IMG/VR virus record: IMGVR_UViG_3300033489_000001
Span: 190,023-254,022 of that record
Length of the DNA: 64,000 bases
Strand: one strand, 5' to 3'
Source: a virus
Taxonomy: Duplodnaviria; Heunggongvirae; Uroviricota; Caudoviricetes
Positions within the stretch are counted from its first letter, which is position 1. Every line of letters begins with the position of its first letter. Of this stretch, positions 27,206 through 60,627 are shown piece by piece. Made by a program: the position numbers and the translations under genes. The notes under the pieces were generated by a model. The model saw nothing but the letters and a program-made list of their open reading frames with translations, had not been told where the DNA came from and searched no databases.

Positions 27206-27338
27206 CGGTTGTTATCACGGGGCCGGTGAGCAAACGTGTTTTTTGAAAAAATTTGCTTTTTTATTTGACAGGCGGTTTTTTTCGGTGCATTATTACCCGG
27301 TAACGTAAAAACACCTTTTAGAGGTGCAATTTTCAGAT

Positions 27339-27416
27339 ATGAAACAGAACAGACAGATTTCGCCGATGCCCGTAGGGCCGCATAGCTATCCAATAGATAG
27401 CTTTATTCGGAACTGA
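27339..27416 (+). CDS. Leader peptide 1 MKQNRQISPMPVGPHSYPIDSFIRN upstream of tRNA cluster 1
   Basis: Follows TTGACA(27265)-N17-CATTAT; 19 of 24 sense codons after the start are read by tRNAs encoded at 27573-36774. Confidence 0.6.
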   Translation: MKQNRQISPMPVGPHSYPIDSFIRN

Positions 27417-27572
27417 TCCGTCTCAACTGTAGGCGGGTCAAAAAGAACCCGCCACGAAACACTTGCTATTTCTCGGCGGGGGATGTGAAAGGAGAAAGCA
27501 AGATGTTTGAACGTTCACCACAATTACCCGGTCACCCGTGCATTTCGAGGCACGGTGCAATCAGCGTATGAC

Positions 27573-27646
27573 CGGGGTAAGGGCTTGATGGTAAGCCGCC
27601 TGGCCTGGGACCAGGAGTTGTGCAAGTTCGACCCTTGCTACCCCGA
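27573..27646 (+). tRNA. tRNA-Pro(TGG), C33
   Basis: Acceptor CGGGGTA/TACCCCG; loop CCTGGGA; GTTCGA. Confidence 0.9.
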
Positions 27647-27699
27647 CTGGAAAATTTCAGTGATAGTGAAATAATGGTGAACGAATATTGAAAATTTAT

Positions 27700-27784
27700 G
27701 GTATCACGGGCACCGCTACTTAAGCTCTGGCGGATGTGCTGGGCGGGGTTGCTCCCGCTGTTTCGGGAAACCGGAGCTGGTACC
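27700..27784 (+). ncRNA. Unidentified four-way-junction structured RNA
   Basis: Closing stem GGTATCA/TGGTACC encloses three hairpins, the last capped by GAAA; no T-loop. Confidence 0.4.
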
Positions 27785-27795
27785 TTCCCTTTTGA

Positions 27796-27867
27796 TGCGG
27801 GATGACGCAGTGGAAGCGTGCAAGCCCCATAAGCTTGATGTCGTGGGTTCAAATCCCACTCCCGCTA
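27796..27867 (+). tRNA. tRNA-Met(CAT), initiator-like (1:72 mismatch), C33
   Basis: Loop CCCATAA; stem CAAGC/GCTTG. Confidence 0.88.
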
Positions 27868-27939
27868 CTAGTTAGAAGAGAATAAAGGCTTGAAAATGAC
27901 TTGGATAGACTCTAACAATGTTGAGGTTGACGATCTTCC

Positions 27940-28013
27940 GCCCCGTAACGCATCTGGGGGTGCGGTTGCCTTGTCACGGCAATGTTGGAGGAGTTCGATT
28001 CTCCCACGGGGCG
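27940..28013 (+). tRNA. tRNA-Asp(GTC)
   Basis: GCCCCGT/ACGGGGC; loop TTGTCAC. Confidence 0.9.
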
Positions 28014-28152
28014 CTAACCCAATTTGATCAAGTTTAGGCAGGTTTAGGGCAGTTTACAAAGAAACGATAACTTTACTAACTTTCGTATAAATGAGGAGAC
28101 AAGAAGAGTGAAAACTCGACCCCTACATAGCAGCTGCGGATGGCACTCTCAC

Positions 28153-28226
28153 GTTGTCCGTAGTTCAATGGTAGAACGTTGGGCGGTGGACCCAAAAATG
28201 ACAGTTCAATTCTGTTCGGATAACCA
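28153..28226 (+). tRNA. tRNA-His(GTG), G33
   Basis: G-1:C73 8-bp acceptor; loop CGGTGGA; encoded CCA. Confidence 0.9.
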
Positions 28227-28279
28227 AATCCGCTCCTATACCGTGCCGCGAGAGGCGGCAACTTTGACGGACGGTATAG

Positions 28280-28363
28280 GCATCGGACGGTGAATGGTAC
28301 ACCAACAGACTGTAAATCTGCGGAGCTTGCTCTATGAAGGTTCAAATCCTTCCCGATGCACCA
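28280..28363 (+). tRNA. tRNA-Tyr(GTA)
   Basis: Loop CTGTAAA; long variable arm; CCA. Confidence 0.93.
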
Positions 28364-28690
28364 AATCAATAGGAGTGGAAATCTTTTTCGGGACACAAAA
28401 GAGTTGAAAGGCTCACCGATTTCAATTATCAGGAAGGCGTGAAACCTTCCCTTGCTTTTCAGGTTTTACCCAAAAGAAGACTACCTCTTAGAACCACATA
28501 CCTTTTCAAGGAGTACCCTTTGGATTTATTGAATGCAAGCTGAGAGTATGCGATTTCACAATCTTCAAATACGAAGCCCAAAAACCAAACAGGAGAAAAC
28601 TGCTAATCAAGAGGGTTGGCACAGGGCAAAACGAAGGTCAATAAATCTCCCTTCCAGATGGGACGATATCTTCTTTAAACTACAGCGAAG

Positions 28691-29334
28691 TTGGAAGGCT
28701 CATCGAAAAACAAAGTTCAAACCAAAGTAACTACCATGAAACCCTACGGCGTAAAAATTGAAGAGTGGCCTGACGTGGCGGATATTCAAGCGATGGGCAG
28801 TAAAGGCTCTGTAGGCCGTTTGGCCGGGCGCTCCGGAGATTACCATCCTTACATCCGAGGCTCTAATAAAGCCCGAACCCGGCGGTACTGGAAGCGCCTT
28901 GCTCGTGCGGAAAGCAAGCGATTGTGTGTATGAAAGACTCCAAACCTAAAGGATGGGTTTTATTAGAAACCCTAAATATAGGCATTGTGAACTACGATGA
29001 TGACCCAATAAAAATGGCTCTCCTCGTTGAACAAGGCTCTTATAGGTATGTCCTAAAACCTGGAGGACGCTTAGGTGTTGAGCCCTTTCTATCTGAAAAT
29101 ATAAAGGGCACGAATTGAAAATTCAAGTTATCTGTCATCTGAGGTATGACTGACAAGTTTGAAAAGGTAAAACAAGTTTGGAGAGGCAACCAGCCAATAA
29201 CAGTTACGGTTCCTGGCCTTCACGGAGGAGCGGGAGACGTTGTAAAGAGGTTCACGGAACAGATTGGTATCAAACCCTGTTCGGCATGTGAAAAGCGGAG
29301 ACAACTTCTAAATCAAAGGTTACGATTCAAATAA
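28691..29334 (+). other. Three small hypothetical CDSs
   Basis: ORF track 28691-28933, 28924-29118, 29146-29334; tandem and co-directional. Confidence 0.55.
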
Positions 29335-29523
29335 GATCGTACTTTATGAGGATTGTTAAAGAATTTTTAGAGGGTATCAAGATTATTCGAGAATATCTTG
29401 AAATTAAATGTGAGGAATTAGAAGCTAGTAGTAGGGACGAAGTAGATGTGAAATTAAGTCCCTTCATCACTATTACATTAAAAAAGCGTTCAAAGAAAGG
29501 AAGAAAAGTAGCTTAGAAAATAC

Positions 29524-29968: not shown

Positions 29969-30481
29969 ATGCCCAACTATAAACGTAAAAAATGCTCTAA
30001 GTGTCACAAAACATTTGTGCCTAGCAGTGGCCACTTAAAATGCCCCACCTGTCGTGCTAAAGAACGACCTCGAATAAAATGTATAGATTGTGGAGAGTCA
30101 ATTATATATGACCGCGAACGTTGCCGTAAATGCGCAGATATGAAGCAAAAGGTGGAATCTAACGGAAATTGGAAAGGTGGAAAGACACGTCATAAAGCTG
30201 GCTACGTCTTAGTTCGTGTACCAGAACACCCCAGAGCTACAAAAAACTGCAAGTATGTATTCGAGCACATTCTGGTTATGGAGGAAGAACTCGGACGTTA
30301 CCTTCTCCCTGAAGAGAAAATTCACCATAAGAATGGAATGAAAAGTGATAACCGCACATCAAACTTAGAGGTATGGACAACGGCTCATCCCATTGGGGCC
30401 AGGATAAAAGACTTGGTTGTGTGGGCTAAAGAGCTTCTTGGATTATATGACCCCAAAGCACTACGGGTACATAAAAAATGA
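29969..30481 (+). CDS. HNH homing endonuclease with Zn-finger N-terminus
   Basis: NWKGG, EHILVME, IHHKNGMKSDNRTSNLE; directly after ssrA. Confidence 0.9.
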   Translation: MPNYKRKKCSKCHKTFVPSSGHLKCPTCRAKERPRIKCIDCGESIIYDRERCRKCADMKQKVESNGNWKGGKTRHKAGYVLVRVPEHPRATKNCKYVFEHILVMEEELGRYLLPEEKIHHKNGMKSDNRTSNLEVWTTAHPIGARIKDLVVWAKELLGLYDPKALRVHKK

Positions 30482-35165: not shown

Positions 35166-36684
35166 TGGCATTTAGTCGGTGTAATATAACCGGGATGGAA
35201 ACCAGAGATTTACATCCAGATGAAATTAGTAACAAGAATCTTCTTGAGCATATCAGAGGAGCTGATGGGGGCTTACCTCCCACGTTTGTTGGGATGACTT
35301 TTGTTCGTCATGTTAAAGAAGGAAGAGGATGGGATTCTGAATTTGCATGGGCAATTTATATTAGTCACGATCCCTGTCATGATGATCATCGTAAACGCTC
35401 AGTACTAGGAGATGACCGCAGTACCGTTATTGCCTTTCATCGAAACAAAGGGATTTTCCGCATTATTGGACGGGAGCTGCCTAAAAAGTTAGCTTTGGAG
35501 CTTGCAAGAGGAGACCTGCCAAAGATTGGAGAACAACCTCCTTATACCAACGGCCGTTTGTTATATTTTTGGTTTCTTTATGACTGGGAATCCCGCGACA
35601 AGCAGCTCTTACTAAAGCCTCCTGGGCCTGATTATGTTTATAGACCAAATGAGAAACTTTACCGTTGTGTACTTGGAATTGATCCTCCTTTGGATAAGAC
35701 GATCGATGAGATCTTAGCTTCTGTAGAATTTGAAGAGGCTAAGACAAAAGAGCCCTTAGGCTCTAAGGAATTTTCCGAGTACCTCGCCCATCATCTATTT
35801 AGCGAGGTTCATAAATTTATGCCTCCGGAAACCTTTGGGTATGGGCTTCCTGGGATTCAATCCAGATTCTTTCGAGGTGAATCCGCATTCACATTGAAAT
35901 CAAAGTGGGGTAACTATATAGTTCAAGTCACAAAGATTCTGGACCCATCAAGTTAAAGGATTCCAAGAATTACGAACTAAGAAAGAGGTGGACTCATGTT
36001 ATTACTGACCCCTTGGGCGTGTATTATAGGCGCAATTGCTTTCATCGTTCTTCTCTTTTTGGTCGAGTTAGATCGTTTTGGTTTTGCCACGCTATTGATG
36101 ATTGCAACGATAGTGGCGGCTCAATACTTTCACATAGCCGATATTTTGGGATGGGTAAGTAAGAACTACGCTTGGACACTAGTTTACGTCATTGTTTATC
36201 TGATATTGGGAATAGGTTGGTCGATTGGAAAGTGGGTTTTATTTCTACGAAAGTTCAACCGGAAGCGGCTAGAAGCTGTTTCTGCTGTACAGTCAACCGC
36301 AAAACAAGAAGACCCTCCAACACAATCTGTAAAGGATATTTCCGTCCACTTGAAACATGAGATGTATAAGGGGACTTATTTATCACAGAGACCCAAGGCA
36401 TCGGACTACAAGGGGACAATAATCGCATGGATGATCTGGTGGCCCATATCTATGATTAGCACCTTCTTGAATGATCCCGTCAGAGAACTATTCAACATCG
36501 TCTATGACCAGCTCAGTGGACTTTATCAAACCCTCGCTGACAAGATCGTTTCAGATATTGAGAAGAAGTAAACCTCCCCGGTGAACCTAAAGGCTTGACA
36601 CAACCCTCGATAGGTGTATGATAGGAGATATGTTTTTCGGACGGGCCACAGAAAGCAGTACGCGCTCTGAGAGTAAAATCTTTC

Positions 36685-36774
36685 GGAGAGGCGACGAACA
36701 TTGGTGAGTCGTGGCATTTTGCTAAAATGTTGGGCGTAACTGTCCTGGGGGTTCGATTCCCTTCCTCTCCGCCA
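36685..36774 (+). tRNA. tRNA-Ser(GCT)
   Basis: Loop TTGCTAA; long variable arm; CCA. Confidence 0.92.
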
Positions 36775-37628: not shown

Positions 37629-38519
37629 CTAAGTAGCTTTCAATACTTTTCGAGCCTGAAGAGCTGCTGCTATCTTAGCTCTATGTTCTTTTGTTTTAGG
37701 ACGACCTTTTGTAGCAGCACTCAATTTTGCTCGTGTTTCATCTGAAAGAGATTTGCCTATTTTCGAAGCTCTAATCTTTTCCCTAGTTTCTTCTGAAACG
37801 GTAGCCCCAGAGTCTCGCCATTCTTTCCAACGCTTTTTATTGCACGAACTTATGATCGCACGCTGTTTAGCAGATATAGTCTTACCTTTGTGTATTCGAC
37901 TCACGGCCTCTCTAGCTGCGGGATCTATGAATTGACGTAAGGTGGCTTGTCGGAGTTTTTCTTTGGTTTCTGCACTGTGTGGTTTACGTTTTATAGGATT
38001 TAGCCTACGCCGTTTCCAAGCGGCCTTCATTTTAACTTTAGCAGATTCTGGCCTGGGTTTACCCCGACTTAAGATCTGAGCTTTACGTAATGCCTCTAAT
38101 GACTTTTCAGTGGGTCGTGGAGGTTTGTATCCGGGGGTATTACGGCGTCTTTCCCAAGCAGCTTTAATACTCTGACTAGCTTTTTTCTTACTTTCAACAG
38201 TTTTTTCATACCCCAGAATACCCCCACCCCCATCAGTTAAATTTGTCAGGTTGCAACCGAGTGTACGAAAATATTTAATCCAGTAGCATTCCGCTTCATT
38301 CCCATTTAACACTGGAACTTTTTGTATTACTCTGATCTCTGGTTTGATCCCAGCTTGTATCAATTTCTGTAACCAAAAATCTTTATGCGTCTTTTTATGT
38401 TTGCTACAATAAAGATGTTCGTAAAGGCGTTTACTAAGTTTTGCGGAAGTCCATCCGATATATCTGATTTCATCCGAAAAAGGATCTATGAGAGCATATA
38501 CTGTGGCCCATTGATTCAT
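37629..38519 (-). CDS. GIY-YIG homing endonuclease with NUMOD3 repeats
   Basis: VYALIDP..IRYIGWT..RLYEH, E..WI, YNLT-like CNLTDGG; HSAETKEKL-type repeats. Confidence 0.9.
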   Translation of the reverse strand: MNQWATVYALIDPFSDEIRYIGWTSAKLSKRLYEHLYCSKHKKTHKDFWLQKLIQAGIKPEIRVIQKVPVLNGNEAECYWIKYFRTLGCNLTNLTDGGGGILGYEKTVESKKKASQSIKAAWERRRNTPGYKPPRPTEKSLEALRKAQILSRGKPRPESAKVKMKAAWKRRRLNPIKRKPHSAETKEKLRQATLRQFIDPAAREAVSRIHKGKTISAKQRAIISSCNKKRWKEWRDSGATVSEETREKIRASKIGKSLSDETRAKLSAATKGRPKTKEHRAKIAAALQARKVLKAT

Positions 38520-38603: not shown

Positions 38604-39203
38604 ATGGCTATTCTAACTTTACAAGTGCCGGAAGAAACTGCACGAGTTTTACGAGAAATTCCAGTTCCAGGAAACCAAGAAAAAGATGAAGCTCACGTTA
38701 CGATCCTATTCTTCGGAAAAGAACTACCAATTACTCAAATCAGTTCTATGCTTCCAGTGATCTATGAGATTACTTCAAAGACACTTCCCTTTTCTGTGTC
38801 AACCAATCACATTTCAACTTTTCCATCGGGAGCCGATGGTGTCCCAGTTATTGCAAGATTAAACTCCCCATCTTTACATATCTTTAGAGAGACGCTATGT
38901 AAAGCTTTCGATGATGTGGGTCTGTTCTACGATACTAAATTTAAAACATACAAACCGCACTTCACCTTGGCGTATGCCTCCGATCCTAAGACGACCGTAG
39001 GCATTGACATCCCTGAAGTGTCTTGGGGCGCTCACGAAGTAGTTCTTTGGGGGTCCGACCAAGGCACCGGGCGGCTAATCATCAAGTTCCCCCTGAGCTT
39101 ACCTGAGGGGAAGGTTTCAACGCTCAGAATGCCCCAAGAGTCTGTTTTGTACCGATCCTTTGTGAAGCTCGCTAGGTACGGCAAATTTAGTAAGGTTGCT
39201 TGA
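38604..39203 (+). CDS. 2H phosphoesterase / LigT-like 2',3'-cyclic phosphodiesterase
   Basis: Two HxT motifs: AHVTI and PHFTL. Confidence 0.85.
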   Translation: MAILTLQVPEETARVLREIPVPGNQEKDEAHVTILFFGKELPITQISSMLPVIYEITSKTLPFSVSTNHISTFPSGADGVPVIARLNSPSLHIFRETLCKAFDDVGLFYDTKFKTYKPHFTLAYASDPKTTVGIDIPEVSWGAHEVVLWGSDQGTGRLIIKFPLSLPEGKVSTLRMPQESVLYRSFVKLARYGKFSKVA

Positions 39204-41413: not shown

Positions 41414-41509
41414 ACTAGAGGTAAAGAATAGAAGCTTTTGTTGGAAACATTACAAAAGCATAAAAAACGCTTGACAACCTTCTCCCCTTAGTCTAGTCTG
41501 ATAGACAGT

Positions 41510-41640: not shown

Positions 41641-41723
41641 GCGGGTGTGGCGGAACGGAAGACGCACCAGGTTTAGGCCCTGGCGTTCGAAAGAACGTGG
41701 GGGTTCAAATCCCTTCGCCCGCA
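41641..41723 (+). tRNA. tRNA-Leu(TAG)
   Basis: CCAGG-TTTAGGC-CCTGG; long variable arm. Confidence 0.93.
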
Positions 41724-41729
41724 CTGTGA

Positions 41730-41812
41730 GCAGGTGTGGTGGAATGGCAGACACGCCGGATCGAGGGTTCGGTGGCTTCAAAACCGTGCTGGTTCAAATC
41801 CAGTCACCTGCA
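41730..41812 (+). tRNA. tRNA-Leu(GAG), C33
   Basis: CCGGA-TCGAGGG-TTCGG. Confidence 0.9.
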
Positions 41813-41865
41813 CCGGTAGTTCACGGAAATAGCTATGTTTACGGTTACTTGAACATTAAGGATAA

Positions 41866-41950
41866 GCTCCGATGGTGGAACTCGGCATACACCCCGGTCT
41901 TAGAAGCCGGGGCTCGAAAGAGCGTACAGGTTCAAATCCTGTTCGGAGCA
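41866..41950 (+). tRNA. tRNA-Leu(TAG), second isodecoder
   Basis: Loop CTTAGAA. Confidence 0.92.
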
Positions 41951-41954
41951 CTAC

Positions 41955-42037
41955 GGAAAGCAAACTGGTCCGGGATCAGCCCCGCCTTGAAAGCGGTGGG
42001 CACCGAGAGGTGTGGAGTTCGACCCTTCTGCTTTCCG
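41955..42037 (+). tRNA. tRNA-Ser(TGA)
   Basis: Loop CTTGAAA; G73. Confidence 0.9.
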
Positions 42038-42044
42038 CCGGTTT

Positions 42045-42128
42045 GGAGGATGAACTGGCCGTGGGGTCAGACCTGCTTCGAAAACAGGATGCACCGAGAG
42101 GTGTGGAGTTCGAGCCTTCCGTCCTCCG
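42045..42128 (+). tRNA. tRNA-Ser(CGA)
   Basis: Loop TTCGAAA; variable and T arms shared with the Ser(TGA) gene. Confidence 0.88.
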
Positions 42129-42147
42129 CTGATCTTTGAAAAGTTAT

Positions 42148-42235
42148 GCGGATATGGTGAAATTGGCAGCCACGGTAGTCTCAAAAGCTACTGGTCTAAA
42201 AAACCGTACTGGTTCGAGTCCAGTTATCCGCACCA
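42148..42235 (+). tRNA. tRNA-Leu(CAA)
   Basis: Loop CTCAAAA; CCA. Confidence 0.93.
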
Positions 42236-42236
42236 T

Positions 42237-42321
42237 GCGGGCGTGGCGTAATTGGCAGCCGCGTCAGACTTAAAATCTGGTGGTCTAAAAAACCGTGCTG
42301 GTTCAAGTCCAGTCGCCCGCA
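42237..42321 (+). tRNA. tRNA-Leu(TAA)
   Basis: Loop CTTAAAA. Confidence 0.93.
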
Positions 42322-42384
42322 CAAAAACAATGGATTATCAAAACAATTGTTGAAGTTTACATTTGGTTTGGTATCCTCTGCGGA

Positions 42385-43017
42385 ATGACAGCCAAGCCTG
42401 AGTATAGACATCCAAACACTAAATGCAGTATTTGTGAAAAACCAGTATATCGGCGTCCAAATGAATTACTTAGACTAAAAAATGTATATTGTTGTAGAAA
42501 ATGTCAAGGGGCACCAAGAAAGGCAACTCTTAAATCAAAAATTTGTCCCCAATGTAAGAAAGAATTTACGCACCCTTCGTACCAACCCAGAACGTATTGT
42601 TCGCTTTCTTGCTCCAGCCTAGCAAGACGCGGAAGGCATCATAAACATAATAAGGGATATTTGCCCCGGAACGTTGATCGTCTCTTGCATTTGCTAGAAG
42701 AAGCTAAAACAACTCACTGCATGATTGAAGGATGTTTGTACGAAAACACTCTCGATGTACACAGGCTGATAACTGGCAAAAAAGGAGGAAAATATAAGAA
42801 AGGTAATATGTTTGCTTTATGCCCCAATCACCACGCTGAATTGCATAGAGGTGTCATTGAGGTCCAAAAGGTAGGCCCCTATAAACTAAAAATTGTTAGA
42901 ATAATAGCAAAAACGCAATTAGATAAATATGCAAGGCAATGGCGTATATGGAAAATGAGTCTAATTGATAACAAAAAAGGCCATGCTGATATTGGAAGAC
43001 AGCCGGATATTGGTTAG
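42385..43017 (+). CDS. HNH endonuclease with Zn fingers, inserted in the tRNA cluster
   Basis: CSICEK, CPQCKKEF..YCSLSC, LDVHRL...GG.Y...N...LCPNHHAELH; start reassigned to ATG 42385. Confidence 0.82.
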   Translation: MTAKPEYRHPNTKCSICEKPVYRRPNELLRLKNVYCCRKCQGAPRKATLKSKICPQCKKEFTHPSYQPRTYCSLSCSSLARRGRHHKHNKGYLPRNVDRLLHLLEEAKTTHCMIEGCLYENTLDVHRLITGKKGGKYKKGNMFALCPNHHAELHRGVIEVQKVGPYKLKIVRIIAKTQLDKYARQWRIWKMSLIDNKKGHADIGRQPDIG

Positions 43018-43080
43018 CCGGGCTCGCCTGGAAAGCGGGTGGCCGTAAAAGGTCTAAGAGTTCGATTCCCTTGTCTTCCG
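42994..43080 (+). tRNA. tRNA-Ser(GGA)
   Basis: Loop CTGGAAA; long variable arm. Confidence 0.92.
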
Positions 43081-43131
43081 CTAAAGCGAGGCTGAAAAGC
43101 CCTTGGCGGTTCGATCCCGCCCCTTTCCGCC
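43080..43131 (+). pseudogene. 3' half of a Ser-type tRNA
   Basis: Variable arm GGCT-GAAA-AGCC, T arm GGCGG-TTCGATC-CCGCC, CCTTTCC-G-CCA; no 5' half. Confidence 0.7.
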
Positions 43132-44556: not shown

Positions 44557-44600
44557 AGCCTTATTGTGTGTTAATAATCCATTTATGTTTCAATGAAGTG

Positions 44601-49813: not shown

Positions 49814-52800
49814 TTGTGCTTAATGAGTAAATCAACGCGAGAGCTTATGCTTGAGTCCGAAACGACGGCTTTACGTCAATACATTGCGAGGTGCGTGGCA
49901 TGTCCTGATGATAACCCACGATCTTTATCTAAGAGAATTGATCAATTGCTTGCAGCAGAACGTGAGCGGGATCAGTTGAAGATAGAAGTGAAAAATTTAC
50001 AGGAAAAGCTTAGAATAAAAAATCTCACTAAGTAAGGGAATGTTATGAGATTTGATGGACTTGACAAAATAAAGGATATGTCTTTGGAAGAAGCGAACGA
50101 GTGGCTTCTCAAGGATATGCAGAAAATGACTAGGCAAACTGTTATTCTTGCCTTCTTTGGGATCTTGGCGTTAGTATTAGTGCTCGCTTTTGCGGGCCAA
50201 TGACCAGGGATCAGCATGAAAATTGGAACGAAGTCCCTGCTATTTGGAGTTCACCAAGTACTCTTGCACCCTCTGATGGTTGCATGGGCTTGGAAGAAAC
50301 TTTACGGATTCCCTTGGGACTTTCGTCTATGGGTTTGTTTCATCGTTCATGATTGGGGTTATTGGGGGGCTCCTGAAATGGACGGGCCAATTGGAGATCA
50401 ACATCCTAGACTTGGTGCCCAAATTGTTCATAAACTTTTAGACAGAAACAATAAGTGGGATTGGTATAACTTGTGTATCCACCATTCTAGGTTCCTCGCT
50501 GCTAAAAGCGGAAATCTCCCCTCACGCCTTTGTATGGCCGATAAGCTATCCGTGACATTAGAACCCTGGTGGTTTTATTTACCCCGTGCTTGGGCTTCCG
50601 GAGAGTTGAAAGAGTATATGAACTCCTCAAAGCCTGAGGGAAAACACGGGCACCTGAAACTAAAAACTGATACTTCAAAAGGGTGGTATCAATCTTTTCA
50701 AGTGTCTATGCAAAAGTACGTTGGCGGGCATAAGGATGGTCAAAAAGATTTGATTACACCGGTTAAATAAAGTAATATGGCGCGAATACTTGTTTACTCC
50801 ATACTCCTAAGTACCCCTTTCCTCTTTTGGGGTCTTAATCGATGTTTGACTAAATTTATGTGTATGAACCGTTCGGAATTTTTAGAGTATAGGAGAGGTG
50901 TAATAGAATGGGCAAGAAAGAAGAAATCCTTTCTAACACCGGCTTGGGAGAAGATGCGAGACGTTGGGGCGGATACCCAAAAAGCGCTTGGGGTAAAGAT
51001 TCCTATGCCGTGGTAGTTTCTGACAGTAGAAGGATGATTGTCTTATATACCGGCGGGCCAGCCATAAAGATGGAGCTGGACGAGTCAGGTATGGCCCCGG
51101 AAGACATTTTGCCTATAGAAGGAGCAGGGGACGGAATATCCGTTTGGGTTGGTAAAGCTAAATGGGAGCCGGGGCCGTATGACTGCACAGAGGATGGTGA
51201 GACAATTCTTGACGGGGAGTTTCGTGATCCAACGGACCAGGAGTGGGAGTACATTCGTAAAGGCGAGTCCCCTTGGAACGAAGCCGATTGGGGTTGGGTT
51301 GAAGAAGAGGTTTTGGAGATAAGTGCTCGCCCGTTGATCAAAGCTTGAAGTAGGATTCAATTTATTACCACACCGGAATAAGGTAGGATTCAATTTAAAA
51401 CTTGAATTATTCTTTCCTCCGGTGTAGTAATAGATATGGACGCAACAACATTATTAGCCCTTGAAAGAGTCACAAAACAAGCTGCTAAAGCTGCTAAAGC
51501 TCGTGAAGAAGTAGCTGCGGGGGACTACAAGTTCGACACCGTTTTGACCTTCAACTTGAAGGGCGAACTTCGGGTTGCGGAAGATTTTGAGTGGACACCC
51601 ACGGTATCAATTCCAATAAAAGAGACGTTAGCTCTCTTCATGCGTTATTGTGGAGCCACCCGTGAAGCGGCGATGGCGGGCCTGATGCGGGCCATGAAAG
51701 AGGCACATGAACTTGAAGAAAAAGGGGAAACGTGTATTGCCGAGCTTGCCGACCTGAAAGAGATGGAAAAGCAGGTAGTAGAGAGCTTAGGGCAACTTCC
51801 GAAAGAGCTTAAGAAGGGTGCGGTAACCGGCAAATTAACGCTTACCGAGATTGTGTCAACGCCCCCGATGGAAACCGAAGTGAAAAAGGCGGCGTAGTTC
51901 TTCTTAGGAAGGGGAGAAAAGCACATGGCAAAAGTGGTACAATACATGCAATCAGTCACGGAAGAAGTGACCGTACGGGCCGGAATGCGAGAAATGATCA
52001 TCCGATCCACACGGACGGAGACCGTGGCTTTCCTAACGGATGGGATTGAGACCCTTGAACTCGTAACCGCCTCCAAAGGTGCTATTGGCTACGGTACAGT
52101 GTCACTTCTCGCCAGCGAGACGGTCCCACGCCTTTTACTTACGGCCTAGGTTTGATGCTTACAAAAAATAAAAGGATGGGACGTCCAATCAAAGGAGAAG
52201 CCGCCGCAACGGAAATGGTGCGGATACGGTTACCTCACAGAATCAAAACTCTTTGGCAGCAAGCGGCGGCGGCACGTGGTTTAACCCTGACCGATCTTAT
52301 TGCTTTGGGAGTGCAGAATTTACAGCGTGACAAGAAAGGAAGTTATGGCAAAACGTAATGCAGAACCAAGAGTTAGGTTAGGTAAAGGCGAAAGTGTTGT
52401 TACAGCATTTGCTTACCCCTGTGATGGGCCGGGATGGGCTAATAATCCGGTAGTCGTAATCATTCGAGAGGTTGACAAAAAGCTGCGGGAAGAGATGATG
52501 CAACCCTCGGAACTCTCACGAGAGATGGTCCTTCTTTACGGGATTAGTCATGCCGTCCATTCGGCCATGACTAATGAAGCCCATAAGAAACTGACCGAGC
52601 CCGCCAGTGTAAAGCTTGTCAAAAAGAGCAGATGAAGTGTAAGGCCAAGAATTGAGTTCTTGGAAAAGATAAGGAAAGACGTCCAAAAAATAAACTAAGG
52701 AGTCAATCGATGGAGATCCCGATCAAAGAACTTAGAGGTAAGCCTTTTGCTAAAGCGGGCACCGTGGATATGGAAGCCATGACGGCGGAGTTCAAAAAGC

Positions 52801-53280: not shown

Positions 53281-53697
53281 ATGAAAATTCTCGTGATTGA
53301 CGATGTTCAGCTAATACGGGAATGGTTTTTAGACGTTCTCGAACCGTTAGGCCATGAAGTTCGGCTGGTGGCGGATGCCGAGTCAGCTCTTGACCAATTC
53401 CATGAGACAAGGTTCGACCTGGCTTTTTTCGATCACGACCTTAGTGGCAAAATGAACGGATCACAGCTTGCTAGTCAGATTTTAGAGCACCCCAAAAAGT
53501 ATAAGCGTCCACGTCTTGTTTGGGTTCACTCTCACAACCTTAACGGGGCTCTTAACATCGAAGCCAAATTTAAAGCCGCCGGAATTGAATGCTGGTTAGA
53601 GCAATACATCCATTGCATCGGCTACAAGCAAGATTTCAAGAACACGGTTGAAGCGCTCCTAGAGGGCAAGCCCATACCGTCAAGAGAGTTCAGATAA
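53281..53697 (+). CDS. Receiver-fold protein, cyclic-phosphate-processing (cREC) type
   Basis: VIDD, FDHDLSG, VHSHNLNGA (DHDL and HSxN signature). Confidence 0.7.
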   Translation: MKILVIDDVQLIREWFLDVLEPLGHEVRLVADAESALDQFHETRFDLAFFDHDLSGKMNGSQLASQILEHPKKYKRPRLVWVHSHNLNGALNIEAKFKAAGIECWLEQYIHCIGYKQDFKNTVEALLEGKPIPSREFR

Positions 53698-54540
53698 TTC
53701 TTGAATTCTTCCTACCTCCGGTGTAGTAATAGATATGGAACAAGCTCGTATTAGTACCGCCGATCTAAAGGTACAGATGGCCAACTACTTCAGCGCGAGA
53801 GTTGAGGAATTACACAGCCTTTCCTACGAGGACATAATGAGGCTGATTCCTCCGGCGTGGGTAGGGTTACGAGAGAGGATCGTGAAAAGGCATAAAACTT
53901 CGCCTAATTTTTGGCAAATCGTTTGAAAAGAATCTATGTATAAGATTGAAAAGCCCTGCTTTTTCTTAGTGCGTTCAACTATAGAAACCTGCCCAGATAT
54001 TGCGGGTCCGAATTGTAAATTTCTTACTACCGCTCCACATTGGAGTGAGTGCTGCTTCGGAGGGAGTAGTGCATATCTTGTTGATTATAAGAAACGACAA
54101 GCTGCCACTGTTCGGCGAGAGGCTAAAAAAGGAGCATCTAAATGAACGATTATAGTGTAAAAAGAGGTACCTCCAGGAGAAAAAAGCCGGTTCCAAACAT
54201 TTTGATGTACCACTTGCCCAATCGTCACGCTAAGGATGACGATAAGCAAGTTGAATGCGGTACAGAATCCTGGCCCACAGAAGTAACTTGTCCTGATTGT
54301 AAGAAGAGTCACATACGTTGGGCGGAAGACGGATATGTACCGGGACATCGTATTTGCCCCGTGTGCGGATCTCATTGGTCTCTTGAAGCTCCGGCCTCAC
54401 CGGGTGGCCAATGGATTCTTAGACGTGCAAGATTTTACAGCTAAAACGAAATGTCCGATGCGGTGGGAAACCTGGGCCTCTATTCGCTCTACAAATAACG
54501 AAAAACTTGAATTTTATCCTTCTCCGGTGTAGTAGTAGAT

Positions 54541-54921
54541 ATGGAAGCTATACTGGAGAAAGAAATGATCACCGCTGAGACCTGCTTGACTTGTGGGGCA
54601 TGTTGCATTCCATATGAAGAAGAGACTTTCGTTGATCTCCTCTCGGAAGACTTAGAGAGGCTAGGGCCGGAAGTGGCCCGCCGATTGGTAGAAGAAGAGG
54701 CTCTAAAGATTAAAAAGATCCATCCCACTAAGGGACTTCTCAATAAATGCACCGTTTGCGTTTGCATCGCCCTTAGAGGAAATCCTTTCCACAAAGTTCG
54801 GTGCTCCATCTACCAAGTCCGGCCTCAGGCTTGCCGGGACGCAGTCAAACCCGGCACCCGGATATGCCGCAACGTACGAAGCCATTACGAGCGGGTAGTT
54901 AGGAATTTTGAAGAAGATTAA
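54541..54921 (+). CDS. YkgJ-family Cys-cluster protein
   Basis: CLTCGACC, C..L.G...VRCSIY..RPQACR. Confidence 0.8.
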   Translation: MEAILEKEMITAETCLTCGACCIPYEEETFVDLLSEDLERLGPEVARRLVEEEALKIKKIHPTKGLLNKCTVCVCIALRGNPFHKVRCSIYQVRPQACRDAVKPGTRICRNVRSHYERVVRNFEED

Positions 54922-55802
54922 GAAAGATCTTGAATTAGTTCTTTCCCCGGTGTAGTAATAAATAGAAGATGATCAGGCCCCATATATCCCCCCGAATTGA
55001 TTGCATGAATGCAAAGGGAAGCCTTTGTTCGGCCGAACGAAGCCTTTTGGCGTTATGCAAAGTCCATTCGGGGATTGTCACTGGGGCCGCCTTATCCCGT
55101 CCGTAGCTCAGAGGCAGAGCGCCATTCTAGATGGAGACGTGGTCCCGAACACCACCAGATGGGCCGCATGAAAAACTTCTACTCAGAAGGGGAGGCGCTA
55201 GGTAAAAAAGGTAAGAGGGATATCTCTTGCTTTGCCTTAAAGGGGCTTATCAGCCCCTCCCCTTGTGGGTAGAAACAATGAAATGAGGATAAAATGGAAG
55301 AACGCCCGATAAAGGTAGAGCTGTCTAGCGCCCTTTATTCCATGCTGGCCCTGATCACCTTCTGGCTGTTTATAATTATGTTAAATATAAGCAGCTTACC
55401 CAAAGACATTCAGGTAGCTAACCCGGCTTGTGTCTGTGCCCTAGGAAAGAAGTGAAGCAACTTCCGACGCAAACGGCGGAAGTCTAAAGGACCGAAGGAC
55501 TCCATTAATTTTATGGCAAAAAAGCAGATAGCTAAGAAGATGATTATATCCCTTAAGAGCATACAAGCATGGCGAGAGGTTCTAGGACTCGGTGGTTGGT
55601 CTCACGCTGACATAGAGCGGATTGATTGGATGCTCGAGACAATCAAAGCGCAGCGGATTGAACTGGACGAGGTGAAAAAAGAGTTAAGGGAAGTGGTATA
55701 TAAGATAGGGGATAAAGGGATCGGGTCTTATTAGGCGGGGACCTAAAACTTTTGTAACTTAGGCTAAGAGTCGGGGTAGATCTTTCTTAGCCCAAGGTGT
55801 AA

Positions 55803-56564: not shown

Positions 56565-56908
56565 AACTAAAACTTGAACTAATCCCGCTTCCAGTGTAGT
56601 AATAGATATGGACGCTGCTGACAATTATAAAAACCGTCTGATTGAAAGTGGGGACCTAAACGGGGCCATTCATTTCTGTGTGAACAATATGAAACGCGAT
56701 TATGCCGCTGCCCGTGAAGAGGTCTATAAAGCCCACTACGCGGGGAAGGGTTTACCTAGGCCTACTGAAAAGTACGTTGGTTATTAGTCCCACTCATTAA
56801 GTAGGTGGGCTTACTTTAATTGATGACTCATTCTGTAAAAGAAGATAAGGCATCAATTAGGTAGTATTGTTCAAAAAGAATGAAAGTCAAAAAGCAAGCG
56901 GAGTAAAG

Positions 56909-57250
56909 ATGGAGCAAGCGGTTCTTATATCGGTCTTCGATCTTGCGGGGCCGGAATGCTGGATGGACACTGACGGGCAACTCCTTTATGATAAGTTCGT
57001 TCCACTGCTTCGGGAAGGGAAAAAGGTAGCCCTGTCTTTTAAGTACGTGGAGATGATCACCCCCACGTTTCTCAATGCCGCCATTGGCCAGCTTTACAGT
57101 GAATTCACCGAGGAGCAGATTCGTGAGCTGTTATCGGTAACAGACTTGGGGCCGGAAGACCTGGCTGACCTAAAGAAGGTTGTGGATAACGCTAAGAGGT
57201 ACTTCGCCAGCAAAGATAAAAAATCTTGTGCTTTTTCTATTGACAAGTAG
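56909..57250 (+). CDS. STAS-like (DUF4325-type) protein
   Basis: DGQLLY..L.EG.KV.LSF..VE.ITPTFLNAAIGQLY. Confidence 0.8.
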   Translation: MEQAVLISVFDLAGPECWMDTDGQLLYDKFVPLLREGKKVALSFKYVEMITPTFLNAAIGQLYSEFTEEQIRELLSVTDLGPEDLADLKKVVDNAKRYFASKDKKSCAFSIDK

Positions 57251-57279
57251 AAAGCGTTACGTCAGACTGAATCAATAAT

Positions 57280-57399
57280 ATGCGCACCCAGCTCACAACG
57301 ACCCTGACCGTGACTACAGCAACCCGCTGTACGGTCGTCGTATGCGCTGCGGCTGCCGCTACAGGTACCGGGCCTCTGGCTGCAATCATCTGGCGATAA
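57280..57399 (+). CDS. Leader peptide 3 MRTQLTTTLTVTTATRCTVVVCAAAAATGTGPLAAIIWR upstream of the Trp/Cys/Gly/Val/Ala/Thr tRNA cluster
   Basis: Follows TTGACA(57240)-N17-CAGACT; 28 of 39 residues are T, A, V, C, G or W. Confidence 0.82.
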   Translation: MRTQLTTTLTVTTATRCTVVVCAAAAATGTGPLAAIIWR

Positions 57400-57417: not shown

Positions 57418-57488
57418 AGGCCAGAGGCGTTGGTTGCCGAGCAGACTCCAAATCTGCTGTGGACAGAGTTCGATTCTCTGCTGGCCTG
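57418..57488 (+). tRNA. tRNA-Trp(CCA)
   Basis: GCAGA-CTCCAAA-TCTGC. Confidence 0.9.
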
Positions 57489-57714
57489 CTAGCAGGGGTT
57501 GAACCATCGAATTGAAGGTGATGGAAGTGAGCATGAGCCCTAACGATCAACAGAAAATAGACTGTTCCTGGTATGAATGGCTCTCTGATTTATCACCCTT
57601 ATTTAAGCTCGCTATAGCTCTAGGGCTGGTTGCATTTACCGTATGGATGGCTTGGAGGCACTTATGAACAAACGAACGACTGGACCGTTGTGTAGAAGCT
57701 CTCGGATGGTTTTT

Positions 57715-57783
57715 GTCCCAGTCCATCCGGGATGGAAACGAGCTGCAAACTCGTTGAGATGGGTCCGACTCCCATCTGGGGCT
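57715..57783 (+). tRNA. tRNA-Cys(GCA), atypical D and T loops
   Basis: ACGAG-CTGCAAA-CTCGT; T loop TCCGACT. Confidence 0.82.
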
Positions 57784-57788
57784 CAAAT

Positions 57789-57859
57789 GCGAGTGTGATG
57801 CAACGGTAGCATGTCTCTTTGCCATGGAGGAAATTCGGGTTCGAACCCCGACGCTCGCA
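57789..57859 (+). tRNA. tRNA-Gly(GCC)
   Basis: Loop TTGCCAT. Confidence 0.9.
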
Positions 57860-57867
57860 CTGAATTT

Positions 57868-57939
57868 AGCGGCTGGGCCGGACGGTAAGGCGTCTCTTTT
57901 ACAAGGAGAAAAATATAGGTTCAACTCCTATAGCCGCTA
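57868..57939 (+). tRNA. tRNA-Val(TAC)
   Basis: Loop TTTACAA. Confidence 0.88.
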
Positions 57940-57982
57940 CTAGAGAAATGAGGTGGGCAAGAAAACAACAAAGATTGAAATT

Positions 57983-58055
57983 GGGGATGTAGCTCAGTCG
58001 GGAGAGCGCTGGTCCTGCAAACCGGAAGCCGCTGGTTCGATTCCAGTCATCTCCA
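57983..58055 (+). tRNA. tRNA-Ala(TGC), C33
   Basis: G3-U70; loop CCTGCAA. Confidence 0.93.
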
Positions 58056-58088
58056 CCGTAAAGAAGAAAGTTGAGGAAGTCATGTTTT

Positions 58089-58158
58089 GGGATCGTAGCT
58101 CAATTGGGAGAGCATCCGGTTCGCATCCGGGTTGTGGGATCGTTTCCCACCGGTTCCA
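58089..58158 (+). tRNA. tRNA-Ala(CGC), atypical T loop
   Basis: G3-U70; loop TTCGCAT; T loop ATCGTTT; very short variable region. Confidence 0.75.
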
Positions 58159-58208
58159 CTACTCAAGCACTACGCCGGGGACAAACGCACGGGTAACGCC
58201 CGTTTCCT

Positions 58209-58282
58209 GCCCCCGTAGCTCAATCTGGTAGAGCGCCTACCCCGTAAGTAGGATGTTGCAAGTTCAAGCCTTGTCGGGGGCT
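58209..58282 (+). tRNA. tRNA-Thr(CGT), C33
   Basis: CCTAC-CCCGTAA-GTAGG. Confidence 0.92.
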
Positions 58283-58289
58283 CTCCGAT

Positions 58290-58361
58290 GCCTCTGTCGC
58301 TCAGTGGTGGAGCACCTCTCTTGTAAGGAGGTTGACGTGGGTTCGATTCCCACCGGAGGCT
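58290..58361 (+). tRNA. tRNA-Thr(TGT)
   Basis: Loop CTTGTAA. Confidence 0.92.
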
Positions 58362-58365
58362 CTGT

Positions 58366-58439
58366 GCTGGCGTAGCTCAATGGTAGAGCCCCACCTCGGT
58401 AAGGTGGTGACGCAAGTTCGATCCTTGCTGCCAGCTCCA
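58366..58439 (+). tRNA. tRNA-Thr(GGT), C33
   Basis: CCACC-TCGGTAA-GGTGG; CCA. Confidence 0.93.
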
Positions 58440-58514: not shown

Positions 58515-59899
58515 ATGACTAATAATACAATTACAAATTGTGATGGCAAAGCTACTATTTACATCGAGTCTAAGTTCGAAACACATTGTCCATTATGCAA
58601 AGCTGAATATATAAACCACCAGCATCCTATGAAACCAGCAGGCGTTATAGGCTGGCGTAGTTGTAAATGTACATTTGAGACAAAAGAAGTTACACCAGGC
58701 GTATCTATCATTACACAAATTCCACCTAAAGCACCAGATACACAAGGATAAGGTCCTGCTACCGGCTCAAGTTGATTTCCAAAAATTCGGTGTAATACTT
58801 TAGCAATTACCTATGTTCATCACATTGACCAAAGATTTTTACGAAAAGGTTTACACCCTTCTAGTTGAACAAGCTTGTGCAGAACCCTCATATAAGGAAG
58901 ATTTCATCCGGTACTTCACAGACCCAAAGGAACATTTCCACACCTTGGAATGGCGGTTCCAGGGAAGGTTTGGTTTTGGGGGTAAATTCTGGCGTCAAAG
59001 CATAGGCCATAAAAGAGGGCCAGAGGGAGAAGGCGTTACTATTTACACGCACTATATCTCCTACTATCCCGAGAATTACACTAAAGAGTTAGATAAGCTG
59101 GCCACCGAAATTAACGAAAGTTTGATGAAGCTTACATGGGAAAATAAAATCGTTCGGATGGCGTTACTAGTCAAAGAGTAAGTATGGTCGAACGAGATCC
59201 TAACTCATTCCTTTTGTTGTTATAAATGTATTGACAGTGATTTTTAGATCACTGTCAATACCAAGAGAGCAATATCTGTTCAAAGAATTTCACTGGTTTC
59301 AATTACTGGTTTCAACCGCCTTCGATGATTAAAGTAGCTGAAACCTTTTTACTGCTTTTGCATTCAAAAGTCTTACTTAGAAAGATCGCAAGGGCAAGTC
59401 AAATTTTTAGGACGGACATCAATAAGGCCATCCGTCCGGTCCATGTCCAAAACGTCGCTTTGTTTTCGTTTCTAGCTAATATTGAAAAAGATCAAAATAG
59501 TGCTAAATAAGCATTATGAAAATGATGCTGTTAGGACTTGTGTTTCTTGCTGATGTGGCGTCCCCCGGTTCTTGCCTTTGTAATCGTAGTTCTGAAGAAG
59601 AGGAAGGCGTACCCGTTCCTGAATATACAGTAACTATCTCAATTCCCAGCTGTTCGTGCTTTAAAGATAATGCGGCTTGGGTTTATGTTTATAATGGAGA
59701 AGCCGGGGATTCCGAGCATTACAATCCAAGTTTTCAGACGATAGAGATCTTTTGCAATCAAAAATTATCAGGTGATGTTCAAGTCAAAGAAGGCCTTCAC
59801 GAAATTCAGGCTCTTACCTCCAAGGGTACTTATGCATCACGGGTTATCGAAGTAGTACCAGATGGGGGACCCCGCGAAGTAAACCTAACTTGTCCATAG
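58515..59899 (+). other. Hypothetical CDSs (58515-58751, 58813-59181, 59516-59899)
   Basis: ORF track; 59516 has a signal-peptide-like N-terminus. Confidence 0.55.
59229..59260. other. Perfect 13-bp inverted repeat containing TTGACA on both strands
   Basis: TATTGACAGTGAT-TTTTAG-ATCACTGTCAATA. Confidence 0.8.
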
Positions 59900-60032
59900 G
59901 TAGGTTTCTCAAAAAAATTGAGCTAAGCCAAAAAATTGATTGACAAGTCTTTGCTTTGGCTTCAAACTACTTGATAATCAAAGTTAGCTCGCCATCTTTA
60001 AGAGCGAGACAAACTGATCCTTTAGCCAACAT

Positions 60033-60092
60033 ATGTACCAACAACGACAACAGCGAGAGCAAGAACGGGAGCGACGCCAACAGCGTCGCTAA
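60033..60092 (+). CDS. Leader peptide 4 MYQQRQQREQERERRQQRR upstream of the Glu/Gln/Arg tRNA cluster
   Basis: 17 consecutive CAR/GAR/CGN codons; TTGACA at 59940 upstream. Confidence 0.85.
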   Translation: MYQQRQQREQERERRQQRR

Positions 60093-60106
60093 TACTCGTA
60101 GCTCAC

Positions 60107-60182
60107 GCACCTGTCGTCTAGTCTGGTTTAGGACACTGGCTTTTCACGCCAGCAAACACAAGTTCAAATCTTGTCGGGTGCG
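60107..60182 (+). tRNA. tRNA-Glu(TTC)
   Basis: CTGGC-TTTTCAC-GCCAG. Confidence 0.93.
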
Positions 60183-60189
60183 CCGGAAG

Positions 60190-60225
60190 GCTCCTATCGG
60201 CTAATCTGGTAGGCCGCTAGGAGCA
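60190..60225 (+). pseudogene. Internally deleted tRNA (acceptor stem plus D arm only)
   Basis: GCTCCTA-TC-GGCT-AATCTGGT-AGGCC-GC-TAGGAGC-A. Confidence 0.6.
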
Positions 60226-60229
60226 TTAG

Positions 60230-60301
60230 GCACCTGTCGTCTAAAAGGCAGGACCCCGGACCCTCAATCCGACAATACGAGTTCGATTCTCGTCAGGTGC
60301 G
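60230..60301 (+). tRNA. tRNA-Glu(CTC), C33
   Basis: CGGA-CCCTCAA-TCCG. Confidence 0.9.
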
Positions 60302-60306
60302 CTGAT

Positions 60307-60377
60307 TCGGGAGTAGCACAATGGCAGTGCGGTAGACTCTGGATCTATTAATGTTGGTTCGATTCCAGCCTCCCGAG
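60307..60377 (+). tRNA. tRNA-Gln(CTG)
   Basis: Loop CTCTGGA. Confidence 0.92.
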
Positions 60378-60384
60378 CCGGTTT

Positions 60385-60456
60385 GTCTCTGTAGATCAAC
60401 GGATAGATCTTCGGTCTACGGAACCGACAATATAGGTTCGAATCCTATCAGAGACG
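60385..60456 (+). tRNA. tRNA-Arg(ACG)
   Basis: Loop CTACGGA. Confidence 0.92.
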
Positions 60457-60468
60457 CTGAGAGTCTTT

Positions 60469-60541
60469 GCCCGTGAAGCTCAAATGGATGAGCCCTTGCT
60501 TCCGAAGCAAGAGGATGGAAGTTCGAATCTTCTCACGGGTG
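60469..60541 (+). tRNA. tRNA-Arg(CCG)
   Basis: Loop TTCCGAA. Confidence 0.92.
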
Positions 60542-60553
60542 CTTGAAAACTAT

Positions 60554-60627
60554 TCGGGCGTCGTTCAAAGGTAGGACACCGGTCTTTGACTCCGTTAATG
60601 TTGGTTCAATTCCAGCCGCCCGAGCCA
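60554..60627 (+). tRNA. tRNA-Gln(TTG)
   Basis: Loop CTTTGAC; weak anticodon stem; CCA. Confidence 0.87.

Follow-up and report, generated by a model that had tools for sequence, protein, structure and literature searches.

The role and the control of the transfer RNA (tRNA) genes carried by phages have been debated for decades. Codon compensation is one current idea; another is that phage tRNAs stand in for those which anticodon nucleases of the host have cleaved (PMC10264068). The closest described systems for the locus treated here are the attenuators of amino-acid operons (trpL, hisL, leuL, thrL, ilvL, pheL, and pheM of pheST), in which a short open reading frame (ORF) rich in cognate codons lies next to the promoter, several leaders such as those of thr and ilv are multivalent, and the leader RNA is structured with helices overlapping the ORF. 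The same features are seen in a set of short ORFs at the head of tRNA gene clusters in a phage of the class Caudoviricetes (IMG/VR record IMGVR_UViG_3300033489_000001). The window analysed is a stretch of 64,000 nucleotides (nt), 190023-254022 of the 411,618-bp genome, and its own numbering is used below. It holds on the plus strand the whole tRNA complement that ARAGORN finds in the genome, 36 tRNAs and one transfer-messenger RNA (tmRNA); no tRNA-Asp was detected in the genome. We consider it fairly probable that the short ORFs are translated, cis-acting leaders which sense the supply of the tRNAs of their own cluster and set the tRNA yield.

How are these genes arranged? Four tight tRNA clusters are each headed by a TTGACA promoter with an A/T-rich upstream stretch, and a fifth TTGACA unit, which the original prediction had not listed, stands 5' of a lone tRNA-Ser(GCU) (Table 1). 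Each TTGACA is followed after 16-17 nt by a -10-like hexamer whose second letter is A and whose sixth is T. The hexamer TTGACA is not enriched in the genome as a whole, with 213 copies against about 244 expected. Between promoter and first tRNA, all five units have a short ORF of 19-39 codons as attenuators do, and the layout that had been proposed for the four clusters extends in this way to the fifth unit. Two details of the proposal had to be changed. Cluster 2 has two tRNA-Ser genes, both UCN readers, rather than three, the tRNA-Ser(GCU) being a separate promoter-headed unit 4.9 kb upstream. The supposed mixed cluster is not one operon: an intrinsic terminator ends the Pro/Met/His/Tyr operon, and the tRNAs 3' of it are interleaved with protein genes and have no comparable promoter or leader. 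The leaders are named L1 to L5 after their units, with two ORFs, L1a and L1b, in unit 1; the residues of L1a include all four amino acids of the unit 1 tRNAs. The start positions of L2, L3 and L5 would give leaderless or nearly leaderless mRNAs. The stop codons lie close to the first tRNA, at 1 nt for L1b, 15 nt for L4, 18 nt for L3 and 47 nt for L2, and L5 extends 23 nt into tRNA-Ser(GCU).

Do the codons of a leader belong to its own cluster? All 2,882 ATG ORFs of 15-60 codons in the genome were scored with the standard wobble of each cluster's anticodons. Scored for its own cluster's codons, each of L2, L3 and L4 comes first among the 2,882, and the matrix of leaders against clusters is diagonal. 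In L4, 17 of 18 codons match (binomial 7e-16); as had been predicted, it is pure Gln/Arg/Glu after Met-Tyr, ahead of two Glu, two Gln and two Arg tRNAs. L3 was expected to be rich in Thr, Ala, Val, Cys, Gly and Trp before the same tRNAs, and it is so, with 11 Thr, eight Ala, four Val, two Cys, two Gly and one Trp; 28 of its 38 codons match at the amino-acid level (9e-10) and 20 of 38 with strict wobble. For L2 the number is 15 of 26 (2e-5). The over-represented cognate codons that mark attenuators are therefore found in L2, L3 and L4, and the claim that the leaders mirror their clusters holds for these three, but the cluster-1 leader is weak when taken alone. The stronger claim that every decodable codon is used lies within chance (P 0.10, 0.49 and 0.08).

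The match does not depend on the choice of ORFs. In a frame-free test of 823,000 sliding windows in six frames, with no ORF required, the L4 score is reached at one genome locus only, L4 itself; L3 is one of four loci, or one of two with relaxed wobble, and L2 is one of 17. From these locus counts, the chance that an equally extreme locus lies no more than some 150 nt 5' of its own cluster is about 3e-3 for L2, 7e-4 for L3 and 2e-4 for L4. Chance or a composition artefact would account for L1a, L1b and L5, each of which falls within chance by itself, but it is rejected for L2-L4 by the genome-wide ranks and the window counts, and as an explanation of the whole set we give it hardly any credence. 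The codon-matched leaders of L2-L4 are confirmed as a real feature, and the leader ORFs are probably regulatory.

The agreement extends to the level of codon boxes. Each of the seven Arg codons in L4 is a CGN codon (probability 0.047 under phage codon usage), and the AGR-reading tRNAs sit in another region, away from cluster 4. The five Ser codons of L2 are all UCN (probability 0.17), while three of the four in L5, which lies 5' of tRNA-Ser(GCU), are AGY (probability 0.08). Might the ORFs instead encode small functional peptides, with a composition unrelated to the tRNAs? L2 is hydrophobic and resembles a signal or membrane segment, and Leu/Ser-rich windows do occur at those 17 genome loci. 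L4, made of Gln, Arg and Glu only, and L3 are however implausible as folded peptides, and three independent matches to adjacent clusters would be left unexplained; we regard this possibility as very improbable.

Is the same design used by other phages? The original prediction had called for a search for codon-matched short ORFs before other phage tRNA arrays. The design recurs in phages and is not universal. One case is an A+T-rich uncultured phage contig (Ga0307378_10031349, here L019), which was found by an exact 23-mer of the window's unusual tRNA-Pro. The head of its array (2590-2797) has a TTGACA promoter and an ORF of 25 codons led by a Shine-Dalgarno (SD) sequence. Leaving aside its first four residues, 20 of the remaining 21 are among the ten amino acids that the downstream tRNAs carry. 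Immediately 5' of the first tRNA stands a canonical terminator, whose 3' arm recurs at the end of the ORF and makes an antiterminator there. This array has at least 17 tRNAs, is found also in contigs L017 and L018, and carries a second TTGACA promoter at 5078, before tRNA-Thr(CGU).

The other case came from a blind scan of Brevundimonas phage Kikimora (ON529857.1), where a TTGACA promoter abuts an ORF of 31 codons. Every downstream tRNA, namely Tyr, Val(GAC), Ile, Val(CAC), Gln and Asn, has one codon or more within codons 4-17, and this is the sole such locus in 40 kb and six frames. An antiterminator segment in the ORF is followed by a 14-bp terminator with a U-run. In a second unit of this phage, four consecutive Pro codons, drawn from those read by the three tRNA-Pro genes of the unit, are followed by a terminator. 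The Kikimora-type leader is present in 40 Dolichocephalovirinae records, including Caulobacter phage phiCbK, whose leader has Phe and whose first downstream tRNA is Phe. Seven phiCbK-like members were aligned, and they keep the -35 hexamer, the ATG, the frame (indels being of 3 nt), the antiterminator and the terminator; CcrColossus and CcrPW show a compensatory CCTGG/CCAGG exchange in the terminator stem. In L019 and the phiCbK-like phages the wiring would be that a stalled ribosome leaves the antiterminator free and allows readthrough, while a fast ribosome covers it and lets the terminator form. We found no published description of the codon-matched leaders in either.

The phiCbK-like leaders are leaderless, have about 31 codons and precede a Tyr/Phe-Val-Ile-Val-Gln-Asn tRNA block (loci L049:24660-24907 in ON529857.1, L051:856-1183 in phiCbK JX163858.1, and L052-L056). 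The phiCbK leader spans 156312-156464 of JX163858.1, on the minus strand. The ORF is without annotation in most of the 40 records; the terminator is annotated in a few, and in Bambus the ORF is a hypothetical protein. A separate observation concerns G002 (IMGVR_UViG_3300028042_000001, L014:5500-5581), where an SD-led ORF of 14 codons, with five AAA Lys and one GGA Gly, stops 33 nt short of the tRNAs for Lys(UUU) and Gly(UCC); in this A+T-rich genome the match is a weak one (p 1e-3).

Are the leaders of the window conserved among its relatives? Among GenBank phages there is no close relative; DNA matches are tRNA-sized only, and the best RtcB is 51% identical. Protein-anchored scans of IMG/VR with four window proteins gave no matches, and no homologue was found for a 127-aa neighbour protein of cluster 4. 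Two related megaphages were available for comparison: a 416,539-bp IMG/VR contig (G001), reached through its RtcB at 63% identity and having a tmRNA tag that differs from the window's by one residue, and a complete megaphage of 398,071 bp (G003), reached through a hairpin pattern. In both, most tRNA blocks directly follow protein genes. The two-ORF unit of L1 is common to all three phages, so the frame conservation in relatives that the original prediction looked for exists for unit 1, but L2-L4 have no counterparts there and are, among the three megaphages, specific to the window's phage.

The conservation of unit 1 involves both frame and structure. The -35 hexamer of P1 and the start of its -10 hexamer are invariant. 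ORF-a stands at the same place in all three phages, its TGA stop 13-15 nt before an invariant hairpin (GGCGGGTC/ACCCGCC); the window and G003 have C-terminal residues in common, with whole-codon indels and a synonymous Ile change between them. Behind this hairpin, in the three-phage consensus fold, a helix sequesters the SD and AUG of L1b and is backed by three compensatory pairs. Its loop, GGCGGGGG, can alternatively pair with ACCCGCC, which makes a three-segment GGCGGG/CCCGCC system together with the SD helix. ORF-b has a conserved core (Pro-Gly-His/Arg-Pro-Cys) and a hairpin (CCGTGC/GCACGG), and its segment ACCCGG is complementary to the 5' strand of tRNA-Pro. Despite indels of 6 nt and 1 nt, it stays open up to or into tRNA-Pro, entering it in G001 and G003. 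The sequestered SD 3' of a leader ORF would suit translational attenuation of the ermC type, in which case translation of L1a may open the SD helix of L1b.

The content of ORF-a changes along with the tRNAs behind it. In the window it has four Pro, Met, His and Tyr, and the tRNAs are Pro, Met, His and Tyr. In G003 it has three Pro, Asp, Tyr, Phe and four Ile, with no His, before Pro, Met, Asp, Tyr, Met, Phe and Ile; in G001 it has four Pro and Met, with no His, Tyr, Asp or Phe, before Pro, Pro, Met and Met. ORF-a thus tracks its downstream tRNAs as a codon-matched sensor predicts, in a small sample of three phages.

The leaders are also structured. L3 and L4 are far more stable than codon-order shuffles (z -4.7 and -5.1), and L2, L5 and L1b only slightly so. 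In L4 a GCGACGC/GCGTCGC hairpin ends at the stop codon, and in L3 alternative pairings are offered by UCUGGC/GCCAGA repeats. Segment 57372-57381 of L3 pairs with the 5' end of tRNA-Trp, its cognate first tRNA, better than with any other of the 36 tRNAs, and 1 of 200 codon shuffles equals this pairing; L2 ranks its own first tRNA second of 36. Against codon shuffles, leader-tRNA pairing is notable for L3 only. An Rfam scan (E<=1) returned tRNAs, the tmRNA and weak chance matches only, with no leader family, and a T-box riboswitch identity is excluded on this ground. A boxA-like motif noticed by eye in the 5' UTR hairpin of L4 is missing from the other leaders and was dropped.

Then could the leaders act as RNA only, through structure, processing signals or pairing with the first tRNA, with the open frames as a by-product? 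The strong structure of L3 and L4, the preference of L3 for tRNA-Trp, and the conservation of the L1 hairpins at nucleotide level are what such an RNA would show. It fails to explain, however, why the ATG-headed frame alone spells the amino acids of the cluster in three units, why L1 has in-frame indels and a conserved stop position, and why the frame is conserved in phiCbK-like phages. We therefore regard an RNA without translation as improbable, though less so than a functional peptide.

How might translated leaders act as sensors? The scenario would be as follows. A strong promoter of host type would drive a leader whose codons, even in the choice of box, are those that the downstream tRNAs decode, and the dwell time of the ribosome on this leader would report the supply of the matching charged tRNAs. 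Ribosome occupancy would alter the folding of the leader RNA and in this way set the mature tRNA yield of the unit. Slow decoding, where host tRNA is scarce or cleaved, would raise the output, and fast decoding would lower it; we propose this sign because of the analogy with the trp, his, thr and ilv attenuators and because of the canonical versions in other phages. Here the sensor part exists, in extreme form, but the terminator does not, and the output must therefore work in another way than in those. One candidate is Rho-dependent termination behind a vacated leader, as in tnaC. The C/G ratio is 1.96 in L2, among the top 5% of genome windows, and 1.3 in L3 and L4, both of which are structured, and these ratios neither support nor exclude a Rho entry site at the leaders. 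In another candidate, the ribosome would gate how the first tRNA folds or is processed by RNase P; the leader abuts the 5' end of this tRNA or pairs with it. In a partition-function model with a 30-nt ribosome mask, the naked transcript of all five units keeps the acceptor strand of the first tRNA paired with the leader, and a ribosome on the cognate codons frees it.

Several points weigh against sensing. No hairpin with a U-run lies between leader and first tRNA in any of the five units, though canonical intrinsic terminators exist elsewhere in this phage, after tRNA-Tyr of unit 1 and upstream of P1. For this reason the units are not filed among the classical attenuators, and are likened to them on the sensing side only. 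The trap seen in the model also arises in 40-63% of dinucleotide-shuffled leaders for L1, L2 and L4, and tRNA trapping is for that reason a candidate mechanism and is not claimed. In cognate tRNA 5'-end duplex energy, L1, L4 and L5 do not stand out among the 36 tRNAs. The codon match is insignificant by itself in L1a (7 of 24 on Pro/Met/His/Tyr, p 0.03) and in L5 (3 of 24 AGY, p 0.03), and absent from L1b alone. L1a and L4 have neither an SD sequence nor a leaderless start. A blind scan before the tRNA blocks of G001 and G003 found no equivalents of L2-L4, and blind tests found no codon-matched ORF before the tRNA blocks of uncultured phage LR756500.1 or Streptomyces phage Satis, where the requested search thus failed while it succeeded in L019 and the phiCbK-like phages. 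The sensing of tRNA supply that the original prediction proposed is in part supported: codon matching, codon-box resolution, promoter-proximal starts of leaderless or SD-led type, leader structure, the conserved L1 and the canonical versions elsewhere all speak in favour, and the lack of an intrinsic terminator and of L2-L4 counterparts in the two megaphages speaks against.

There is a further question of concern: could the ORFs be translated and still not be supply sensors? Passage of the ribosome might aid the transcript by blocking Rho, by opening mispairing between leader and tRNA, or by helping RNase P. Efficient translation would in that case increase the tRNA yield in a feed-forward manner, or translation would be constitutive. 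The positions of the stops, 1-47 nt before the first tRNA or inside it, suit this explanation, for they bring a ribosome at termination into contact with the 5' end of the tRNA; so do the hairpins inside the ORFs and the absence of a terminator. A mere helper, however, needs neither codons limited to its own tRNAs nor a partition by codon box, and the canonical versions in other phages are wired so that a stall gives readthrough. We consider it unlikely, although the most serious of the alternatives, and sensing of tRNA supply by translated leaders is the reading that we retain.

Table 1. Features of the window: promoters, leaders and tRNA clusters of the five units, followed by neighbouring genes and elements
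Feature	Position	Strand	Source
P1: TTGACA, 17 nt, CATTAT; A/T-rich upstream	27265..27293	+	
L1a, leader ORF of 25 codons; Pro x4, Met, His, Tyr	27339..27416	+	
Invariant hairpin GGCGGGTC/ACCCGCC after L1a, no U-run behind	27432..27453	+	
Helix sequestering L1b Shine-Dalgarno and AUG; loop holds GGCGGGGG	27460..27505	+	three-phage consensus fold
L1b, ORF of 22 codons, AAGGAG Shine-Dalgarno; stop 1 nt before tRNA-Pro	27503..27571	+	
Unit 1 tRNAs: Pro(UGG), Met(CAU), His(GUG), Tyr(GUA)	27573..28363	+	ARAGORN
Intrinsic terminator closing unit 1, after tRNA-Tyr	28432..28450	+	
P5: TTGACA, 16 nt, TATGAT; 11/12 consensus positions	36595..36622	+	
L5, ORF of 25 codons; start 7 nt past -10 hexamer (leaderless type)	36630..36707	+	
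tRNA-Ser(GCU), AGY reader	36685..36774	+	ARAGORN
P2: TTGACA, 17 nt, TAGTCT	41471..41499	+	
L2, ORF of 27 codons; start 10 nt past -10; 10 Leu and 5 Ser codons	41510..41593	+	
Cluster 2 tRNAs: Leu x5 (UAG, GAG, UAG, CAA, UAA), Ser(UGA), Ser(GGA)	41641..43081	+	ARAGORN
P3: TTGACA, 17 nt, CAGACT	57240..57268	+	
L3, ORF of 39 codons; start 11 nt past -10 hexamer	57280..57399	+	
Cluster 3 tRNAs: Trp, Cys, Gly(GCC), Val, Ala x2, Thr x3	57418..58439	+	ARAGORN
P4: TTGACA, 17 nt, CAAACT	59940..59968	+	
L4, ORF of 19 codons; Met-Tyr, then 17 consecutive Gln/Arg/Glu codons	60033..60092	+	
Cluster 4 tRNAs: Glu(UUC), Glu(CUC), Gln(CUG), Arg(ACG), Arg(CCG), Gln(UUG)	60107..60627	+	ARAGORN
Metallophosphatase	25181-26107		
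2H/LigT phosphoesterase	38604-39203		
RtcB	45436-46542		
RNA ligase with PHA02142 OB fold	46908-47957		
RlaP nucleotidyltransferase	48744-49697		
Cyclic-phosphate-type receiver domain	53281-53697		
Homing-endonuclease-like genes (HNH, NUMOD3, LAGLIDADG)	29969-30481; 37629-38519 (-); 44463-45398		
ORF of 51 codons with hydrophobic stretch	57512-57667		
Palindrome of two facing TTGACA hexamers	59231-59258		
Hairpin before TnpB / IS605 OrfB-like gene	60630-60656		
TnpB / IS605 OrfB-like gene (Cas12f1-like TNB domain)	60758-62197		

What kind of neighbourhood do the units stand in? Genes for RNA repair, namely RtcB, an RNA ligase, RlaP and a 2H phosphoesterase, are interspersed with the tRNA clusters (Table 1); a cyclic-phosphate-type receiver domain and a metallophosphatase are counted with this toolkit. 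They fit a role against tRNA damage, which is not proof of one, and a link between the leaders and tRNA cleavage may be suspected. Taken to its full extent, the idea would be of five sensors resolved by codon box and free of terminators, acting by tRNA folding or processing or by Rho, within a counter-defence island whose RNA-repair enzymes oppose tRNA-cleaving nucleases. We put this forward tentatively, as a possibility that is rather doubtful in its entirety.

Some other features of the window are recorded here in their own right. Homing-endonuclease-like genes lie amid the tRNA genes, and a TnpB-like gene preceded by a hairpin lies directly 3' of cluster 4. In cluster 3, the gap of 225 nt between tRNA-Trp and tRNA-Cys holds an ORF of 51 codons with a hydrophobic stretch. 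The palindrome at 59231-59258 is perfect (TTGACAGTGAT ... ATCACTGTCAA) and is a possible operator or bidirectional promoter. The Rfam tRNA model scores several tRNAs of the window poorly or not at all (27573-27647, 57418-57489, 36685-36774, 57715-57784 and 41955-42039), among them three of the five first tRNAs of units, Pro, Trp and Ser-GCU; tRNA-Pro obtains 34.6 bits, the Trp and Ser-GCU tRNAs match tRNA-Sec only at about 31 bits, and the Cys and Ser-UGA tRNAs are unlisted in the scan. In contigs from two DNA runs of the probable source sample, no variants of the leaders were found. A repeated element of about 40 nt (44075-44111, 51397-51439, 53700-53739, 54503-54555, 54928-54965 and 56786-56860) coincides with the joints of the source-run contigs aligned to the window.

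Full-text literature searches found no published account of leader ORFs that control tRNA genes, in phage or in bacteria, in agreement with the original prediction, which knew of no such description for phage tRNA arrays. If sensing is true, no feedback control acting on tRNA genes themselves would have been described before it, and a phage would be seen to gauge the tRNA pool one codon box at a time and to replenish it on demand. The conservation across cultured phiCbK-like phages of Caulobacter and Brevundimonas, among them those of Caulobacter crescentus, makes the idea testable in a model host, and the codon-matched leader is a sequence signature by which such sensors may be located in other genomes.

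How, then, do the units compare with what is known? In Anabaena sp. PCC 7120, the spare tRNA genes of the L-array (trn operon) are associated with rtcB and induced on impaired translation (PMC8421152). The window likewise has supernumerary tRNA genes associated with rtcB, but the L-array is controlled through promoter repeats and not through a leader, and neither 'leader' nor 'attenuat' occurs in the main text of that paper (PMC8421152). In T-box riboswitches, too, a 5' leader monitors the status of tRNA by the logic of codon and anticodon, but it binds the tRNA directly, without translation, and with one specifier codon. With Rho control of the tnaC type the units have in common a leader ORF without intrinsic terminator, where a ribosome near the stop could hide a Rho site, and the L2 leader is C-rich and G-poor; tnaC, however, senses free tryptophan via the nascent peptide and not codon supply, and the C/G of L3 and L4 is modest, 1.3. 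The leaders of L019 and the phiCbK-like phages are similar to those of the window in having a TTGACA promoter and a leaderless or SD-led, codon-matched ORF at the head of the block. They differ in their canonical terminator and in-ORF antiterminator, which lie 50-250 nt before the tRNAs, while the window's units are terminator-free, stand 1-47 nt from the tRNA and have no sequence homology with them. Finally, as against the attenuators of amino-acid operons, the units of the window are without hairpin and U-run, several of them are leaderless, and the stop codons lie against the first tRNA or within it; the units are borne by a phage, five of them partition the code by codon box, and what they control are tRNA genes, so that the molecule sensed would be the product itself.

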